A stretch of 64,000 nucleotides of DNA from Patescibacteria group bacterium. GTDB lineage: Bacteria > Patescibacteriota > Microgenomatia > Levybacterales > GWA1-39-11. The stretch's first letter is position 1, and each line of letters opens with the position of its first letter. Below the pieces are notes generated by a model. The model worked only from the letters and a program-made list of their open reading frames with translations. It searched no databases and was not told the origin of the DNA. This document shows, in pieces, positions 35,049 through 44,008 of this stretch. The translations under genes were made by a program, and so were the position numbers. Location of the stretch: contig DASZRC010000003.1 in the NCBI GenBank assembly GCA_035549315.1, positions 10,374-74,373 of the forward strand, read 5' to 3'.

Positions 35049-36149
35049 CTATCTGCCAATTTTGAATTCTACAACGTCACCATCTGCCATTATATAGTCG
35101 CGGCCTTCCATGCGGGCTTTACCATTTGCACGTGCGTTTTTCCAACCGCCAAGCTCCACAAAGAGAGGATATGAAACAACCTCTGCCTTGATAAAGTTTT
35201 TAACAAAATCTGTGTGAATCTCCCCTGCTGCAACCGGCGCACTACTTCCTACATTAATGGTCCAAGCCTTTACTTCTTTTGCGCCAGTAGTAAGGAAGGA
35301 AATTAAGCCAAGTTTTTCATATGCTTTTTGAATAAGACGCTCAAGTCCGGACTTTTCTACACCAAGCGCTTCAAGATATTCAGCTTGTTCTTCACCATTT
35401 AACTCTGCCAATTCTGCCTCAACTTTGGCACAAATTACTACAAATTTGGATTCCGGAAGACCCAAAAGCTCTGAATATTGCTTAACTACTTGGTTAATTT
35501 TCTCCTCAGAATAATCCGACTCTGAAACATTGAGAACTATTATTTCATCTTTGCTGCTAAGTAAATTTAGGTCTTTTATTGCGTCTAATTCTTCATCAAT
35601 TAGGCTTGCATCCCAAACGCTTTTACCCTCATTAAACGCCTTTTTAAGTTTTTCAACGGCTGCTCCTTTTGTTTTCTCAAGCCTTAGGGTTTTTTCATTT
35701 ATATTTTGAAGTGTTTGCATGTCAGAAAGAATTAATTCATAGCGAATTGTTTCATAATCTGACTTGGGGTCTACTGCTCCTTCTTTTATAACGTCTTTGT
35801 CTTCAAAAACTCTTACAACGTGGGCAATAATTTTTACTTCGCGGATATGGGATAAGAATTTATTACCAAGACCCGCCCCTTCACTGGCTCCTTTAACAAG
35901 CCCTGCAATATCAACAAATTCTACAGTGGCAGGCTTAATGGGTGGAAGGTTCGCCATTTGCTCTTCACTTTTTGTTATCTCTGCAAGCTTTTCTAAACGT
36001 TCGTCTGGAACCGGAACTATTCCAACATTTGGCTCAATTGTGGCAAAAGGATAATTTGCAGCCAAAGCCTGCTGCTTTTTAAGCAACGCATTAAATAATG
36101 TAGATTTCCCAACATTCGGCAACCCAACAATCCCAACTGACAAGTTCAT
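35049..36149 (-). CDS. ychF: Ribosome-binding ATPase YchF (Obg family)
   Basis: G1 motif (GIVGLPNVGKSTLFNAL), YPFATIEPN, C-terminal TGS domain. Confidence 0.85.
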   Translation of the reverse strand: MNLSVGIVGLPNVGKSTLFNALLKKQQALAANYPFATIEPNVGIVPVPDERLEKLAEITKSEEQMANLPPIKPATVEFVDIAGLVKGASEGAGLGNKFLSHIREVKIIAHVVRVFEDKDVIKEGAVDPKSDYETIRYELILSDMQTLQNINEKTLRLEKTKGAAVEKLKKAFNEGKSVWDASLIDEELDAIKDLNLLSSKDEIIVLNVSESDYSEEKINQVVKQYSELLGLPESKFVVICAKVEAELAELNGEEQAEYLEALGVEKSGLERLIQKAYEKLGLISFLTTGAKEVKAWTINVGSSAPVAAGEIHTDFVKNFIKAEVVSYPLFVELGGWKNARANGKARMEGRDYIMADGDVVEFKIGR

Positions 36150-36208: not shown

Positions 36209-36667
36209 CTAGGGTCGAGGATTTTTTTGTTTTATTCGCAAAAATCTTAATTCATTATACGATCCTTCCAAATTATAATAGCTATATTCTAGCACCTCTT
36301 CAAGCGGCATTGTTGTGACCGGCTCTCCAGCGTCTAATCGATGGATAACCGTTTTTCTATCGTTAGGATGAATAATTCCAGAATGAATATATAAACCATG
36401 CTCACCCAAACCAAAATGGCGATAAATCGCAAATGCTTGAGCTTCTTGCGGAGCTTCTTTCACCGGTACAGTTGATGTTTTTACAATCTCAAAATATTTT
36501 CGAAGAGGTCTACTCCTAGCAGAAGCATTTACATAATTCTCATCAATCATATTTCTAAGCCCAAGGAGATAAAATGTTAAACTATGGCAATTTAATTCTG
36601 GATCTACAATCTGACTTGCTGAGCTTAGTCTTTCTTCAAAATCAGGATGGTACATTTCTAATGACAT
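36209..36667 (-). CDS. Hypothetical protein (152 aa)
   Basis: ORF only. Confidence 0.4.
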   Translation of the reverse strand: MSLEMYHPDFEERLSSASQIVDPELNCHSLTFYLLGLRNMIDENYVNASARSRPLRKYFEIVKTSTVPVKEAPQEAQAFAIYRHFGLGEHGLYIHSGIIHPNDRKTVIHRLDAGEPVTTMPLEEVLEYSYYNLEGSYNELRFLRIKQKNPRP

Positions 36668-36698
36668 TTTGCGATTATATCAAACCCTTAGCGAGAGT

Positions 36699-37340
36699 TT
36701 ATTTAAACATTGAGGAGTGGTCGAGGATTATTCCACGAGCTAGTGTGTCTGCAAATTTTCCTGCTTGGTCAAAACCTTTTTTAAGAAGGTTACTCTTGTC
36801 TGTTGCATTTCCGGCTGCTACCGCATCAACTATTGCAAGCGTTCCGTTAACATGGTCGTTCATAAGTGATGTAATCGTTGAAGCTTTTAGGTTTTTGCTC
36901 GCAAGAGTTGTACCAAGATCTTTTGATATTTTTTGGAGGTTGGTCTTTGCACTATTCATTTTTGTTGTGTCATTGTCCTTTTTTGCTAAGGTGTAGTTCT
37001 TGTATTCAGTCATGTGCTGAGTCCAGAGCTTAACAAATTTGTTCTTCTTATCACTTCCATATACACTTTGAACAAGAGCTGCAATTTTCATTTCATTGGC
37101 ATCCATTAATTGCTCTAACCTTGTTGTATCATTGCCCTCATAAAGCGCAGTTAAAGTGACTCCACCCAATACCGTATGTTCGTGAAGTAACGCATTAAGA
37201 TTAACCCTAAGATTTGTTGCTTTAGAATTGAATGCGGCATCTATTCCCGGATTTGTTGCGGCTTGAGTACTGGGTGTAATAGCCAATACCCCTATTACAA
37301 GTGCAGCAAAAGAAACTAAAACTAAAATTCTATTTTTCAT
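36699..37340 (-). CDS. Secreted hypothetical protein with signal peptide
   Basis: MKNRILVLVSFAALVIGVLAITPSTQA signal peptide. Confidence 0.5.
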   Translation of the reverse strand: MKNRILVLVSFAALVIGVLAITPSTQAATNPGIDAAFNSKATNLRVNLNALLHEHTVLGGVTLTALYEGNDTTRLEQLMDANEMKIAALVQSVYGSDKKNKFVKLWTQHMTEYKNYTLAKKDNDTTKMNSAKTNLQKISKDLGTTLASKNLKASTITSLMNDHVNGTLAIVDAVAAGNATDKSNLLKKGFDQAGKFADTLARGIILDHSSMFK

Positions 37341-37447: not shown

Positions 37448-38794
37448 TTAATTAACCTTTACAAATTGTGTTTGAGACCACTCACCAGGCATGCAGTTAT
37501 TCATTCCGGATACTTTGAAGTACCAAGTTGTCGGAAATAAATAATTAATTGTATAAGGAATAACTCCGCCTGAGAAACCATAATTAAATGTTGTTGCAAA
37601 TTGGTTAGCATCGGGCGTAAATCCGTAAGAAATTGTATAGGCCGTATTTTGTCCGCTAACCGGTGCAAAATACAAAGTTGCATTGCTAACACCCGGCTTT
37701 ATTTGGAAAAGGTTAGGTGAACTCTGTGGAGCTGCCGCCGTACAAGATGTTGGCTGGTTAGGTGCTGAAGAAGCGGATCCATTAGAGTTAGTAGTTGGTG
37801 TTGGCGAACTATCGCTAATATAAAGACGGCCCCCATACGCTCCCGCAAGCAAGATTAGCCCATTACTACTCATACTAAGAGGTACCCATTCTTCATCTGC
37901 GGAACCAGCAGGCTGAGTTTCCGACCACGTGTCTCCTCCGTTGGTCGAAATATACAAACGACCAAAACCCTCTCCTACCAATATTGTCTGTCCATCGCTA
38001 CTTATACTTGACGCCGCCCAACTCTTATCTGTATTTCCAACAGGTTGAGTTTCTGACCATGTGTCTCCTCCGTTGGTCGAAATATACAAACGTGTATCAT
38101 CTCCTGCTAGGATTACTTGCCCATTACTACTCACACTTACTGTCTGCCAATTCTCATCTGCATTTCCAGCAGGTTGGGCCTCTGCCCAGGCGCCTCCACC
38201 ATTGGTTGTAATATACAAGCGTCCACCACTTACTCCCGCAACAATAACTTGTCCATTCCCGCTCATGTCAGCAGGAAGCCAATCTTTGTTTGTATTTCCT
38301 GCGGGACGTGTCTCAGACCATGTATCTCCGCCATTGGTTGTTAGATACAATCGCCCGCTACTTACTCCGGCCAATATTGTCTGCCCATCACTACTCATTC
38401 CACTTGGGTACCAAAAATTCTTATCTACGTCACCAGCAGGCTGAGTTTCCGACCATGTGTCTCCTCCGTTTTTGGAAATATAAAGACGTGCATCATCAGC
38501 AACCAAAATGACTTGTCCGTTGCTACTCATTCTAGCCATTTCCCAGTCTTGATCTGTATCGCCGGCAGGTTGGGTCTCAGTCCATGTATCCCCTGCATTT
38601 TTAGAAATATACAAGCGATCAGAGTTTCCGGCAATAACAGTCTGCCCATCAGAACTCATGGCGCTCCCTTCCCAATTGAAATCATCATTGCCAGCTGGCT
38701 GAGTTTCTTGCCAAGTAACAGCTGCATATGAATGCAAACTGAGGGAGAAAAATAAAATAATAGCTAAAAATGAGGATAGTAATACCTTTTTCAC
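37448..38794 (-). CDS. Secreted BNR/Asp-box beta-propeller protein with C-terminal FN3-like module (array member 1)
   Basis: Signal peptide; six repeats of I(S/T)xNGGDTWSETQPAG (BNR S-x-D-x-G-x-T-W). C-terminal module shared with the next three genes; it ends right after the module. Confidence 0.7.
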   Translation of the reverse strand: MKKVLLSSFLAIILFFSLSLHSYAAVTWQETQPAGNDDFNWEGSAMSSDGQTVIAGNSDRLYISKNAGDTWTETQPAGDTDQDWEMARMSSNGQVILVADDARLYISKNGGDTWSETQPAGDVDKNFWYPSGMSSDGQTILAGVSSGRLYLTTNGGDTWSETRPAGNTNKDWLPADMSGNGQVIVAGVSGGRLYITTNGGGAWAEAQPAGNADENWQTVSVSSNGQVILAGDDTRLYISTNGGDTWSETQPVGNTDKSWAASSISSDGQTILVGEGFGRLYISTNGGDTWSETQPAGSADEEWVPLSMSSNGLILLAGAYGGRLYISDSSPTPTTNSNGSASSAPNQPTSCTAAAPQSSPNLFQIKPGVSNATLYFAPVSGQNTAYTISYGFTPDANQFATTFNYGFSGGVIPYTINYLFPTTWYFKVSGMNNCMPGEWSQTQFVKVN

Positions 38795-38907
38795 TACATA
38801 TTAGTAAGCCATATTCCGAGGGATAAATCAAGAGTTTTGACCTTAAAAAACAATACAACTAATTAACTCTTACAAATTGTGTTTGAGACCACTCACCGGG
38901 CATACAG

Positions 38908-40491
38908 CTACCAACAAACGAATAGGAAACAGGATTTTTGAGGAGCAGGCTTTGGTTTTGTGACGTTTTTAGACTGTTGAGTCAAAATTTTTGTAGGAGC
39001 AATTGGCGTTGGCTTAGCAATTGGTAATTTTGAAGTATTTGCTCCTAAAACCGTTGTTTGTTTTGGAATTACACTCAAAATTTGAGAAATAATATTTTTG
39101 TAATATACTCCCCCATTTGTTTTGACTTGCATCGTGTTGCTCCAAGTGCCTATTCCACAATTGTTCTGGGCAAAAACCTTAAAGTAAACGTTAGAATTAG
39201 CTGGTAAATCGTTTATTGCATATGTTAAAACTCCGGTTGATGAACCTTGGTTTGTAAATACATTAAATTGATTGGCGTTGGAATTAAATCCATAGGATAT
39301 TAAATAGTTCTGGGAGTTTCCAACAGGAGAGAAGAAAAGTGTTGCTGCATTTTTAGTGGTATTTATCTGGAATAAATTAGGTGCGCCATTTGGTGTGGTT
39401 GAGCAGGTTGGCGTATTGTTTGAGTTGTTGCTCGAGCTTGAACCTCCTCCACCAGAAGTAGGAGTTGGAGTTGGCAAAAGATCTAAACCCAAATATAATC
39501 TATTGTCATAAGCTCCCGCGAGTAAGACCTGAGTATCAGATGACATACTGCCCAATCTCCAAGTTTTAGCTACATCACCACCGGGCTCCATCAAGTCCCA
39601 ACTAGAGCCCTGATTTGTTGAGAGGTACAAGTTATTTACTCCTCCAACAAAAAGGGTCTGTCCGTCTGAGGATACAGCACTAATATACCAGATATTATCA
39701 ACGTCTCCTGCAGGCTGCTCCTCTGTCCAATGATCACCTTCGTCTATTGAGAGATAAATTCTACTGTTTGAATCCACCAAGATCACATTACCATCATGTG
39801 AGGTACTTAAGCCAAACCACTGTTCATCTGTATCCCCCGCCGGCTGGATCTCCGTCCAAGAGTCCCCTGTATTTTTTGATATGTAAACTCTGGAATTAGC
39901 GACCACCATAACCTGACCATCTGATGACATGCTCGAACTAACCCAGCTTGAGTCAACATTTCCTACGGGCTGAACTTCAGTCCAATTATTTCCTCTGTCT
40001 ATAGATTTATACAATCTGCCACCGTTTATTCCAGCAAGCATAATTTGACCATCTGATGACATACTTGATAGACTCCAATTGAAATTACCAAGATCTATTT
40101 GTGTCCAATCATTTCCATAATTAGTAGACAAATATAGGCCTCCACCGTAAACACCTGCCAAAATTATTTGGCCATCTGATGACATACTTGTGGTATACCA
40201 AATTCGCTCACCTAGTCCACTTGGATCAATAGATGTCCAATTACTACCCCTGTCTGATGATAAATACAAACCGCCATACTGCTCACCTACTATAATTCTT
40301 TGTCCATCCGAAGACATTGCAGATGGGGTCCACCCATAATCCGCATTTCCCCCGGGTTGTATCTCAGACCAGCTTACTGCAGCAAATACTTTTATTGGAG
40401 TCGCAAAATAAAAAAACACTAAGAGCATTAGTAGCAGAATAAAAGAAGGTAATTTTTTGGGCATAACTAAATTTAGAATGTTCAGGATCAA
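38908..40491 (-). CDS. Secreted BNR beta-propeller protein with shared C-terminal module and Cys-containing C-terminal tail (array member 2)
   Basis: Repeats SSDRGSNW, SIDRGNNW, SKNTGDSW, SIDEGDHW. C-terminal module CSTTPNGAPNLFQINTTKN...FAQNNCGIGTWSNTMQVKTNG, K/P-rich linker, final KSCFLFVCW. Confidence 0.7.
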   Translation of the reverse strand: MILNILNLVMPKKLPSFILLLMLLVFFYFATPIKVFAAVSWSEIQPGGNADYGWTPSAMSSDGQRIIVGEQYGGLYLSSDRGSNWTSIDPSGLGERIWYTTSMSSDGQIILAGVYGGGLYLSTNYGNDWTQIDLGNFNWSLSSMSSDGQIMLAGINGGRLYKSIDRGNNWTEVQPVGNVDSSWVSSSMSSDGQVMVVANSRVYISKNTGDSWTEIQPAGDTDEQWFGLSTSHDGNVILVDSNSRIYLSIDEGDHWTEEQPAGDVDNIWYISAVSSDGQTLFVGGVNNLYLSTNQGSSWDLMEPGGDVAKTWRLGSMSSDTQVLLAGAYDNRLYLGLDLLPTPTPTSGGGGSSSSNNSNNTPTCSTTPNGAPNLFQINTTKNAATLFFSPVGNSQNYLISYGFNSNANQFNVFTNQGSSTGVLTYAINDLPANSNVYFKVFAQNNCGIGTWSNTMQVKTNGGVYYKNIISQILSVIPKQTTVLGANTSKLPIAKPTPIAPTKILTQQSKNVTKPKPAPQKSCFLFVCW

Positions 40492-40501
40492 ATTGCAACA
40501 T

Positions 40502-42373
40502 TTAGCAGCCTACTTTGAGGGTTTGGCCTACATTCAATTTGTTTGATGATAAATTGTTTTCTTGCATAATTGATTTATACTTTGCTCCGTTTCCTAATTT
40601 CAAGCTTGCTATTCCCCAAAGCGAATCACCCGCTTGCACAGTATAGTTTTCACATCTTGTTTTGGCCCCTAAAACCTTGCTAGTTTTTGCTCCAAGAACT
40701 GTTGTTTGTTTTGGTAACAAACTTAAAATCTGCGAGATAATATTCTTGTAATACACTCCTCCATTTGTTTTTGCCTGCATAGTATTGCTCCATGCGCCTT
40801 GACTACAGTTGTTTTGAGCAAAAACTTTAAAGTAAATTGTAGCATTAGATGGAAGGCTTCCAACTGTAAAACTTAAAACTCCTGTTGATGAGCCTTGGTT
40901 TGTCATAACATTAAACTGGTTGGCAGACGAATCGAAACCATACGAAATCTGATAATTTTGTGTGTTTCCAACCGGTGAGAAATATATAGTAGCCGAATCC
41001 TTTTTAGTATTTATCTGGAAAAGATTTGGTGATCCATTTGGTGTGGTTGAGCAGGTTGGAGTTATTCCTTGGTTCGGCGGCAAAGACACAGAACTGTTTG
41101 AATTAGAACCGGGAGAAGAAGTTGGAGTAGGATTTACCACATCCACAACACATCCCGTAGACTGAATTCCATTAGAAGTTGCAAATACATAATATTCACC
41201 GGTAGACGAATATGTAACAGTAGCTATTGAATTACCCGACCCGCTTGTATTCACCGAATCGCTACCACCTGCTAACCATGTGTAAGTTCCATCCCCTCCG
41301 CTTGCTGTAATTGTTGCATCCACAGACCCACCCGACAAAACAACGCTAGATGAAGATGGAGAGCAGGTAGGCTGAGATGGCGTAGGAGTCGGCGTTAAAG
41401 TTGGTGTAGGTGTTGGTGATGGAGTTGGGTTAGTAAATTTTTGCACATTATTTTTTGTAACATCACTAACAAATAAATTATTTGCGGAATCAAAAGCAAT
41501 ACCCTGCGGATTTTGAAATTGTCCGTCGCCTGACCCGCCAGATCCAATTTGCGCGATAAAACCTCCATCGCTATCAAATTCCTCAACTCGCTGATTTCCT
41601 GAATCGGTCACATATATATGCCCAAAAGAATCCATTGCAATATAATTTGGAGAGTTAAATTGTCCGTCCCCAGATCCTGAACCTCCCCATTTTTTAATAA
41701 ATGTTCCATCATAGGCAAACTTCTGAATTCTGTTGTTTCCATTATCAACTACGTAAACATTGTCTGCCCCATCCAAAGCTAGTGCCGTAGGACCATTAAT
41801 AAATTGCCCGTCACCCGATCCGTAAGATCCCCATTCCCTCACCTCACTAAAATCTGTCGCTGAAAATTCATACACCTTCTGTTCTTCAACGTCTGCTGCA
41901 TAAATATTTCCATGTGAGTCAAATGCTATACCGCCATATGCATTGAAATTTGATGCAACACCCTCAAGGTTTGAACCGTCTTGATCAAAACGGAAAATTT
42001 CTCCAAAATACCCGCCGGCTGATAAAAACATATAAGCGGAGACGTAAATCTTCCCATCAGAACCCAGCTTTACATCCACCGGAAGAACCTGACTAAAACT
42101 ATCACCCCACATCTCGAGCAGCTTCCATTGCTGATGGTACAATCCGATTGAATTAAACTCTTCAATTCGTTGATTATGTTCATCTGCCACATAAATATTA
42201 CCCGAACTGTCTATGGTCATACCCAAAGGAATATTTAAAAATCCCACAGCACTTCCTGATGAGGCAAATTTACTATCATATTGATAAGCTGCAAATACAG
42301 GAACGCTGCTTCTCACTATGAAAACAGTTACAAGACAAAAAACTAAAAATAGCGATAATATTTTTCTCATCAA
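40502..42373 (-). CDS. Secreted NHL-repeat beta-propeller protein with shared C-terminal module and C-terminal LysM domain (array member 3)
   Basis: NHL repeats (e.g. GSGDGQFNSPNYIAMD...IYVTDSGNQRVEEF), the same CSTTPNGSPNLFQINTKK... module, then YTVQAGDSLWGIA...GQTLKV (LysM). Confidence 0.7.
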   Translation of the reverse strand: MMRKILSLFLVFCLVTVFIVRSSVPVFAAYQYDSKFASSGSAVGFLNIPLGMTIDSSGNIYVADEHNQRIEEFNSIGLYHQQWKLLEMWGDSFSQVLPVDVKLGSDGKIYVSAYMFLSAGGYFGEIFRFDQDGSNLEGVASNFNAYGGIAFDSHGNIYAADVEEQKVYEFSATDFSEVREWGSYGSGDGQFINGPTALALDGADNVYVVDNGNNRIQKFAYDGTFIKKWGGSGSGDGQFNSPNYIAMDSFGHIYVTDSGNQRVEEFDSDGGFIAQIGSGGSGDGQFQNPQGIAFDSANNLFVSDVTKNNVQKFTNPTPSPTPTPTLTPTPTPSQPTCSPSSSSVVLSGGSVDATITASGGDGTYTWLAGGSDSVNTSGSGNSIATVTYSSTGEYYVFATSNGIQSTGCVVDVVNPTPTSSPGSNSNSSVSLPPNQGITPTCSTTPNGSPNLFQINTKKDSATIYFSPVGNTQNYQISYGFDSSANQFNVMTNQGSSTGVLSFTVGSLPSNATIYFKVFAQNNCSQGAWSNTMQAKTNGGVYYKNIISQILSLLPKQTTVLGAKTSKVLGAKTRCENYTVQAGDSLWGIASLKLGNGAKYKSIMQENNLSSNKLNVGQTLKVGC

Positions 42374-42388
42374 TTCAAAAAAGATTTA

Positions 42389-44008
42389 TTAAAGACAAAC
42401 AAAAAGAATGCAAGATTTTTTGGTTTGGATACCCAATACTTTTGATTTGGGTTTTACCACCGGTATTTTCTTTATGATTGGTTTTGCAACGTGGGTTTTA
42501 ATAATCTTTTTTGTTGAAGTAACTTTTGAAACTGGAGTTGAGGATGTTTTTGCTCCAAGAACTGTTGTCTTTTGCGGAATAATACTTAAGATTTGGGAAA
42601 CAAAGTTTTTATAATATATTTCTCCATTTGTTTTGACTTGCATTGTGTTGCTCCATGCGCCTATTCCACAATTGTTTTGTGCAAAGACTTTAAAGTAAAC
42701 ATTAGAATTAGTTGGCAAATTGTTTATTGTATATGTTAAAACTCCGGTTGATGAACCTTGATTTGTAAGCGCGTTAAATTGGCTAGCATCAGAATTAAAC
42801 CCATATGAAATTTGATAGTTCTGTGCACTTCCCACAGGAGAAAAATATGTAGTTGCCGAATTTTTAGTGGTATTTATTTGAAACAAATTTGGTGATCCAC
42901 TTGGAGTTGTTGAACACGTCTGTGTTGTCCCTTTGTTTGGTGGTAAGGATTCCGGCCCTTTGGAATTTGAACTTGGAACAGATGTAGGAGTTGGTGTTGG
43001 GGTGGGATTTGGCGATTGCCAATATAAAACTGGGTAGCTTGATCCGTTATTAACGGTGCTCCAAGTATTTACAAAATCCCAAGACGTCAAAGGCGGATTG
43101 GTTATAGTGTAGAAATAAGAAATATTGTTGGTTATGCGGTTGCAGCCGGTGTTTCCACTTGTATAACAAGACATAAAACCACCCGACACATCATTCCAAT
43201 ATCCATTACTAACTGTTCCGGAACTCATAAGACCAACCATTCCGGCAACAAATGAAACACTCACATATGTCATAGTGGTAAAAGAATTTGATGTTGAAGC
43301 ACTAGAAACAAATCTGCCGGCTATTCCGCCAACATTCTGCCCATGCGTGATACTACCGGTTGAATAACTATTTGTAATGCTTCCGCCACTCATGGTTCCT
43401 GCAATTCCACCGGTATTATTTTGGTTCAAAGTAGAATTCACAATGTTGCCGGAATAATAACTATTACTAACAACGGCAGATGTACCCTGACCAAGCAATC
43501 CCCCCATGACAGGGGCAATAAAATTTGCAGCACTTCCATCCATACTTGCCTTACTATATGAGTTTGTAATACTTCCGCCCGATACAACCGCCGCAAAACT
43601 TCCCATTTTTGAAGTATCACCTTGCTGGGTAAGACTTCCGCTCTCATAACCAATATTTGTAATTAGCCCTCCTGTTCCCAAAGTTTGAAATATTGCTACT
43701 CCGTTTTCATTACTGTTAATTGTGAGATTAGTAATTTTATGGCCTCCACCATCTAGCGTACCGGTGAAAAAATTACTGGTTGTATCTCCTATTGGAGCAA
43801 AGCTAAACCCATTACAATCCACATCGTTCATCATAAGGTAATTGGCGGTAAGGTTGTTGGAAATTTCATGAAGCTGTGAACAAGTCGTAATTTGGTATGG
43901 GTCGCCGCTTGTTCCATTGCCGCTCCCTGAAAATGCAAAGGCTTTTGAAGGTAAAACAAAAATTAAAATTAGGATAATTCCAACAAAGAAAAAACGCAAA
44001 AAGCGCAT
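42389..44008 (-). CDS. Secreted GLUG-motif beta-helix-like protein with shared C-terminal module and Cys-containing tail (array member 4)
   Basis: GSGNGTSGDPYQITTCSQL start and G-rich GGIAG/GGSITNSY repeats (GLUG-like), the shared module, K/P linker, final KSCILFVCL. Confidence 0.65.
   Translation of the reverse strand: MRFLRFFFVGIILILIFVLPSKAFAFSGSGNGTSGDPYQITTCSQLHEISNNLTANYLMMNDVDCNGFSFAPIGDTTSNFFTGTLDGGGHKITNLTINSNENGVAIFQTLGTGGLITNIGYESGSLTQQGDTSKMGSFAAVVSGGSITNSYSKASMDGSAANFIAPVMGGLLGQGTSAVVSNSYYSGNIVNSTLNQNNTGGIAGTMSGGSITNSYSTGSITHGQNVGGIAGRFVSSASTSNSFTTMTYVSVSFVAGMVGLMSSGTVSNGYWNDVSGGFMSCYTSGNTGCNRITNNISYFYTITNPPLTSWDFVNTWSTVNNGSSYPVLYWQSPNPTPTPTPTSVPSSNSKGPESLPPNKGTTQTCSTTPSGSPNLFQINTTKNSATTYFSPVGSAQNYQISYGFNSDASQFNALTNQGSSTGVLTYTINNLPTNSNVYFKVFAQNNCGIGAWSNTMQVKTNGEIYYKNFVSQILSIIPQKTTVLGAKTSSTPVSKVTSTKKIIKTHVAKPIIKKIPVVKPKSKVLGIQTKKSCILFVCL

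Follow-up and report, generated by a model that had tools for sequence, protein, structure and literature searches.

To which gene did a short coding-like fragment lying directly behind an intact member of a surface-protein gene array once belong? We analyzed a 64,000-nucleotide (nt) stretch of contig DASZRC010000003.1 of a Patescibacteria group bacterium (hereafter the window), in which four array members, m1 to m4, are encoded on the minus strand upstream of ychF (Table 1). One base past the stop codon of m2, the +1 frame encodes a peptide that nearly repeats the C-terminus of m1. A preliminary description of this DNA proposed that a cassette encoding the cysteine (Cys) tail of m2 had been inserted into, or recombined onto, a gene that formerly ended like m1, and that anchor swapping had been caught in action. 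Our analysis points to a different origin. Judged from its sequence and context, the fragment, hereafter the relic, is probably the non-functional remnant of a lost m1-type gene, of which the last 15 codons and the stop codon were left. We refer to this gene as m1', which would have been a third BNR-propeller/FN3 gene, of the m1 type, once located between m2 and m1.

The 3' end of m2 reads AAA TCC TGT TTC CTA TTC GTT TGT TGG TAG, and after one further base the +1 frame continues with TGT ATG CCC GGT GAG TGG TCT CAA ACA CAA TTT GTA AGA GTT AAT TAG. The translation of this frame (38906-38859), CMPGEWSQTQFVRVN followed by a stop, shares 14 of 15 residues with the C-terminus of m1, NNCMPGEWSQTQFVKVN followed by a stop (37495-37448). 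At the nucleotide level, positions 38910-38860 could be aligned gap-free with m1 nt 1296-1346 (37499-37449), with 46 of 51 positions identical (90.2%, E = 8e-14, blastn), a longest exact run of 28 nt, and the two stop codons in register. The near-identity noted in the preliminary description was therefore real, and the repeated string and the coordinates that it quoted (37459-37500 and 38862-38905) were right to within a few bases. The nucleotide alignment showed a bounded match rather than a short low-complexity stretch: the relic sequence is not of low complexity, and a 34-nt core, searched with up to three mismatches, was found at two sites in the window and at none in 100 shuffles.

The edges of this homology were sharp, with the m2 stop codon on one side and the relic stop on the other. 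The 64 nt beyond the relic stop did not resemble the downstream flank of m1 (shuffle p = 0.42), and on the other side the 100 nt preceding the relic showed no likeness to the m1 sequence directly ahead of the m1 copy (p = 0.80). At the breakpoint, TAGC on the m2 side and TAAC in m1 offer a possible microhomology of 2-3 nt. The relic lacked a start codon, its coding sequence did not continue upstream, and the +1 frame upstream of it, SLLLKNPVSYSFVGS, was unlike the FN3 domain of the m1 type (FN3a). The lack of a start codon and of a plausible frameshift site indirectly supports the view that the relic is not expressed as a protein. No promoter or terminator match was found inside the relic or the spacer that follows it, this region had no significant or stable fold (z = -0.74), and a search of the whole window against Rfam returned two tRNAs only. 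There were no other relics past the m3 and m4 stop codons or elsewhere in the window, and no 5' or any other fragment of an m1-type gene was found elsewhere in it.

All five differences between the relic and m1 were transitions. Two are synonymous (TGC>TGT and CCT>CCC), the change from AAG to AGA replaces lysine with arginine, and TAA>TAG keeps the stop codon. When five random substitutions were simulated, the frame stayed open, the stop was kept, and at most one residue changed in 0.8% (mixed substitutions) or 2.7% (transitions only) of the cases. Because the differences look coding-like, most of the divergence from m1 would have arisen while the parent gene was still coding, and the truncation would be comparatively recent; the loss of the parent gene thus seems to be a recent event.

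If m2 were itself the gene that formerly ended like m1, a donor module carrying the Cys tail, either the FN3 domain of the other type (FN3c) with its linker and tail or the tail alone, would have recombined in 15 codons before the old stop, and the old 3' end would have been stranded behind the new one. The abutment of the relic on the m2 stop, with no spacer between them, speaks for this model, and FN3c modules are indeed common to genes with unrelated N-terminal domains (m2, m3, and m4; 76-81% nucleotide identity). Against this, m2 possesses one complete FN3c domain, with no FN3a residue upstream of it. Its own in-frame last strand, NNCGIGTWSNTMQVKTN, is conserved in all six Cys-tail orthologues, and the FN3 domain of m2 is therefore complete; no partial FN3a was found upstream of the m2 tail. 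From end to end, m2 was colinear with six Cys-tail proteins of other genomes (56-61% identity, no gaps at domain boundaries), which share its whole architecture including the KKSC[FI]LF[VIF]CW end. Of the four Cys-tail genes whose context was examined, three occupy this same place beside ychF, and the fourth, P0006 on contig L008, does not. TGG TAG is also the ending of the Cys-tail orthologues in L002, L003, L005, and L008, and the TAG at the junction therefore belongs to m2.

The body of m2 showed the same affiliation. In 21 of 24 windows of 40 residues, m2 was closer to the FN3c group than to the m1 type, and in the other three the two tied or differed by no more than 0.03. Amino-acid identity of m2 was 44% to m1 and 37-38% to L004up, an m1-type gene of a related genome, which was the lowest value of all. 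Outside the repeat, m2 shared no long DNA match with m1. In a neighbor-joining tree of the propellers, m2 grouped with the FN3c clade (72.5% bootstrap), separately from m1 and L004up, at a position inside that clade that the tree did not resolve. As both the propeller and the FN3 domain of m2 are mostly of the FN3c type, the supposed cassette would need to comprise all of m2.

The position of the module boundary does not fit an exchange at the relic either. DNA similarity of m2 to m4 (81%) and m3 (76%) ended at m2 nt 1458-1460, right after VLGA[KN]TS, which is 40 codons upstream of the m2 stop. In addition, the module shared by m2 and m4, which is under selection, has diverged by 19% at the nucleotide level, more than the 10% between the relic and m1, and this is the wrong order if m4 had been the donor when the relic was formed. 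Anchors do differ among homologues, and geneA of L008, with an m1-type FN3 domain, has a Cys tail nearly DNA-identical to that of its neighbor; such transfers probably occur. With neither a gene body of the m1/L004up lineage, nor an m1-like mosaic segment, nor a junction at the edge of an exchanged module in m2, we regard a recombined tail as an unlikely explanation of this junction. The preliminary description was right that the relic derives from a gene ending like m1 and that it abuts the m2 stop, but that gene was not m2: on the sequence comparisons above, the relic belongs to a different, lost gene.

To identify this gene, related genomes are informative. Five related contigs have a BNR-FN3 gene directly upstream of ychF or with one gene in between. 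In each of L002, L003, and L005 this is a single type-c (FN3c) Cys-tail gene, in L006 it is an m1-type gene, and L004 has two m1-type (type-a) genes in tandem; the window has four genes and the stub. On L008, a short contig on which no ychF was found downstream, a type-a gene with an added Cys tail stands beside an FN3c Cys-tail gene. The comparison with related genomes suggested in the preliminary description had two outcomes: no relics were seen past the Cys-tail genes of L002, L003, and L005, while L004 keeps an intact m1-type pair. In scans of metagenomes, neither the 28-nt core nor a degenerate Cys-tail coding pattern had any match (0 each), a scan of genome contigs gave four loci, all distant, and a word-index search with the 69 residues of the m2 linker and tail gave one match, labelled Patescibacteria.

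By its YchF protein, L004 is the nearest available genome (77.6% identity, compared to 67-69% for the others). Its two genes, L004up and L004dn, are separated by 65 nt, and their last 51 nt are identical at 46 positions (90%), with unrelated flanks. DNA identity between them was ~50% in the propeller and then rose to 65, 78, and 84% across the last 300 nt. Likewise, their FN3 domains shared 83% of amino acids and their propellers ~38%, and codon identity at conserved residues was also higher in the FN3 part. This pattern indicates concerted evolution of the 3' module only, and the likeness of the 3' parts is consistent with gene conversion. The arrangement in L004 (TAG end, 65 nt, GTG start, TAA end) is the same as that in the window (relic TAG, 64 nt, GTG start of m1, TAA end). 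The identity of m1 was 49.9% to L004dn and 42.6% to L004up. Since m1 is nearer to the downstream gene, the duplication predates the split of the two genomes, and the lineage of the window should therefore once have carried an upstream copy as well. Downstream of the relic, the gene order is as in L004 (ychF, HIT, S21, ybeY, dnaX).

The best reading of the relic is thus that it is what remains of the upstream gene in an L004-like pair. It matches a functional paralogue's 3' end with the stop codons in register, nothing else of the gene is left in the window, and L004up is an intact counterpart. The ancestor shared with L004 would have carried a tandem pair of m1-type genes upstream of ychF, and we assume that the 3' parts of m1' and m1 were kept alike by gene conversion, as in the L004 pair. 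In the simplest account, a single illegitimate recombination would then have connected the base after the m2 stop with the upstream m1-type gene at its codon -16. This event may have been a local deletion of ~1.4 kb, or it may mark the limit of some larger rearrangement or insertion by which m4-m3-m2 came to lie alongside. What it would have left behind are a 3' stub with no function, the 64 nt presumed to be the original spacer between the lost gene and m1, and m1 itself, intact.

Several points weigh against the loss of m1'. The species is represented by one genome, and the best m1 homologue in the databases, P0001 (L004dn), is only 50% identical, so that the intact ancestral state is derived from a fairly distant relative. 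The spacers, 64 nt here and 65 nt in L004, are not significantly similar in sequence (p = 0.72). Synteny with L004 stops at the relic, the upstream gene order being different, which fits a rearrangement or insertion as well as a deletion. The breakpoint lies exactly at the m2 stop, a coincidence that the proposed loss does not explain, although the intergenic spacers in the array measure only 18-40 nt. The coding-constraint simulation is based on five changes. Finally, the junction is known from a single metagenome-assembled contig, and exact-protein look-ups gave only CAZPDH010000020.1.

A broader reading of the same similarity is that the ~50-nt ends of neighboring surface-protein genes in these small genomes represent homology maintained for the recurrent exchange, deletion, or duplication of 3' modules and anchors. 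Three independent pairs bear on it, namely the relic and m1 (90%), L004up and L004dn (90%), and L008 geneA and P0006 (88%, with 31 nt exact). We consider this reading doubtful; if it were true, the relic would be the product of recurrent surface-diversifying recombination and not the scar of a one-off deletion.

The relic could also be an ectopic copy of the 51-nt end of m1, produced by duplication, template switching, or a conversion patch, or a chimera between strain variants that arose during metagenome assembly. With its short length and a distance of just 1.4 kb to its partner, the repeat would suit such an origin, as would the absence of a 5' remnant and the restriction of the junction to one assembly. 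However, the five private differences of the relic argue against a collapsed or duplicated read path, and the end of m2 and the relic have no k-mer in common that could have produced a false join. A non-coding copy would not show differences that look coding-constrained, and the intact L004 layout predicts a gene end exactly here. An ectopic copy or chimera is accordingly quite improbable.

The least probable explanation, to which we give very little credence, is that the relic is a functional element: a C-terminus reached by +1 frameshifting at TGG-TAG-C, an RNA regulator or promoter acting on m1, or a homology handle kept for recombination among neighboring genes. In its favor, the relic frame is open and +1 to that of m2, tandem paralogues in two other genomes are also ~90% identical over their terminal 51 nt, and direct repeats flank m1. 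Against it, UGG-U gives tRNA-Trp no way to re-pair in the +1 frame, and a frameshift product would append a lone FN3 beta-strand after the tail. Neither a slippery site nor an extension conserved in the orthologues was found for programmed frameshifting or read-through; in L003 and L005, only 19-20 nt separate the orthologue from ychF, and nothing relic-like follows the L002 gene. The fold and motif searches described above were negative.

Table 1. Coordinates of the relic, the array genes, and the compared loci; positions refer to the window unless L004 is named.
Feature	Position	Strand	Description
Relic	38859..38906	-	Probable last 15 codons and stop (CMPGEWSQTQFVRVN, stop) of a lost m1-type (BNR propeller and FN3a) gene
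Junction	38907..38910	-	m2 TAG (38910-38908) and one C; pairs with TAAC of m1 (37499-37496)
Intact copy of the ~51-nt repeat	37448..37499	-	3' end of m1
Spacer, 64 nt	38795..38858	-	Between the relic stop and the m1 GTG start
m1	37448..38794	-	Signal peptide, BNR/Sortilin-type beta-propeller, FN3a; ends in NNCMPGEWSQTQFVKVN TAA; GTG start
m2	38908..40491	-	Signal peptide, BNR propeller, FN3c, linker, K/P/T-rich spacer, QKSCFLFVCW tail, TAG
m2 last FN3 strand, NNCGIGTWSNTMQVKTN	39115..39165	-	In-frame homologue of the relic peptide
TVLGANTSK	39028..39054	-	3' boundary of the FN3c and linker module common to m2, m3, and m4
m3	40502..42373	-	NHL propeller, Ig-like domain, FN3c, linker, LysM anchor
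m4	42389..44008	-	GLUG-type N-terminal region, FN3c, linker, KKSCILFVCL tail
ychF	35049..36149	-	Conserved synteny anchor
L004up	L004 6619-7977		Ends in GCMPGEWSEVKSVRIL TAG; directly upstream of L004dn and ychF
L004dn (P0001)	L004 8043-9386		GTG start; ends in GCMPGEWSGVKSVRIL TAA

Some further features of the locus were recorded. The start of m2 is ambiguous among TTG 40491 (the longest open reading frame), ATG 40461, and ATG 40428. The public assembly uses ATG 40428 (506 residues), which loses the basic n-region of the signal peptide, and ATG 40461 (MPKKLPSF..., 517 residues) agrees better with the orthologues. The m1 protein stops with its FN3-like domain and has no C-terminal anchor. Positions 38860-38910 and 37449-37499 are direct repeats of 51 nt, with 28 nt exact, between which the entire m1 gene is bracketed, and recombination between them would delete m1 and leave the stub alone behind m2. 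Between m1 and ychF, two small minus-strand genes at 36209-37340 (213 residues with a signal peptide, and 152 residues) had no recorded Pfam hit and were present in this genome only among the ychF-locus genomes compared. In base composition, m4-m2 showed no evident shift of the kind expected for foreign DNA.

The C-terminal ends of these proteins are variable. Among 120 homologues of m1, 22 ended in LysM, 16 had ends like those of the type IX secretion system (T9SS), and eight had a Cys tail; a residual class of 74 had none of those ends and includes proteins that stop straight after FN3. The Cys tail has the conserved extreme C-terminus K-K-S-C-[FI]-L-F-[VIF]-C-W-stop. It is encoded at 38911-38940 in m2 and, as the variant CILFVCL, at 42392-42421 in m4, both on the minus strand, and it also occurs in L002, L003, L005, and L008 (including geneA). 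The motif comes after a K/P/S/T-rich spacer. The stop context TGG TAG was the same in all five DNA sequences of the tail that were examined. No match to the tail was found among Pfam or NCBIfam models. A transmembrane helix would not fit into its length, and no basic cluster trails it; in m2, only six residues follow the first Cys and the basic residues precede it. The Cys tail may be an uncharacterized surface-anchor signal.

Upstream of the tail, the FN3c domain of m2 is followed by the linker GGVYYKNIISQILSVIPKQTTVLGANTSK (GGVYYKN...TTVLGANTSK). The VLGAKT end of the FN3c and linker module was located at 39028-39054 in m2, in the region 40655-40700 in m3, and in the region 42420-42560 in m4, all on the minus strand; past this point the anchors of the three proteins diverge. 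A second KVLGxxT occurs just before the first anchor Cys in LysM-type proteins (KVLGAKTRC...LysM) and in m4 (KVLGIQTKKSC...tail). The VLGAKT motif looks like the real anchor-exchange junction, or it is possibly a processing site. A candidate for tail exchange was found in L008, where geneA (3226-4764) has a Cys tail appended directly to a complete m1-type FN3 domain. It stands in tandem with the FN3c Cys-tail gene P0006 (4816-6390), and both genes end in the rare CFLFFCW variant. Their last 51 nt were 88% identical, with 31 nt exact, and elsewhere they had only a few short matches of 70-80%. The pair thus represents a probable tail transfer or conversion between neighbors, and as a case of tail transfer it is much more convincing than the junction of m2 and the relic.

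Objects like the relic are already known: it is a gene remnant from a tandem array of paralogues with concertedly evolving 3' modules. Like other such remnants, it is short, lacks a promoter, consists of 3' sequence, and is highly identical at the nucleotide level to a functional neighboring paralogue; it has an intact counterpart at the matching position in a relative (L004), and the L004 pair, with 83% amino-acid identity in the 3' modules and ~38% in the 5' parts, shows the concerted evolution known from such arrays. It differs from them in being unusually short (15 codons) and in being fused exactly to the stop codon of another member, which mimics a swapped C-terminus. Silent partial gene cassettes serve antigenic variation by gene conversion in Neisseria (pilS) and Borrelia (vls). 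The relic is likewise a promoterless partial copy of a surface gene beside an expressed paralogue, and its 28 nt of exact identity would be enough to recombine. In contrast to these cassettes, it is a single copy of 15 codons with one conservative amino-acid change, and it encodes a conserved structural strand instead of a variable region. A role as a silent-cassette donor was considered and rejected, as the relic offers no reservoir of variation and no supporting evidence was found.

Modular anchors such as LysM, LPXTG/sortase, the T9SS C-terminal domain, and Cys-containing tripartite signals offer a further comparison. Varied ends are likewise found here on homologous propeller-FN3 bodies, but the relic itself is neither an anchor nor an anchor junction. 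The Cys-containing tripartite sorting signals comprise the MYXO-, JDVT-, Synerg-, and CGP-CTERM types (Haft 2023, doi 10.1101/2023.06.07.544157). The Cys tail differs from them in having no signature motif, no transmembrane helix, and no Arg cluster.

Taken alone, the relic matters little, as the scar of the recent loss of a member from a surface-protein array. It indicates a rapid turnover of the ychF-upstream locus in this uncultured bacterial group. Likeness between gene ends at this locus reflects the loss and the concerted evolution of paralogues, which calls for caution with anchor-swap readings of such junctions. The VLGAKT boundary and the KKSCFLFxCW tail are the more interesting leads on how these proteins are attached to the cell surface.

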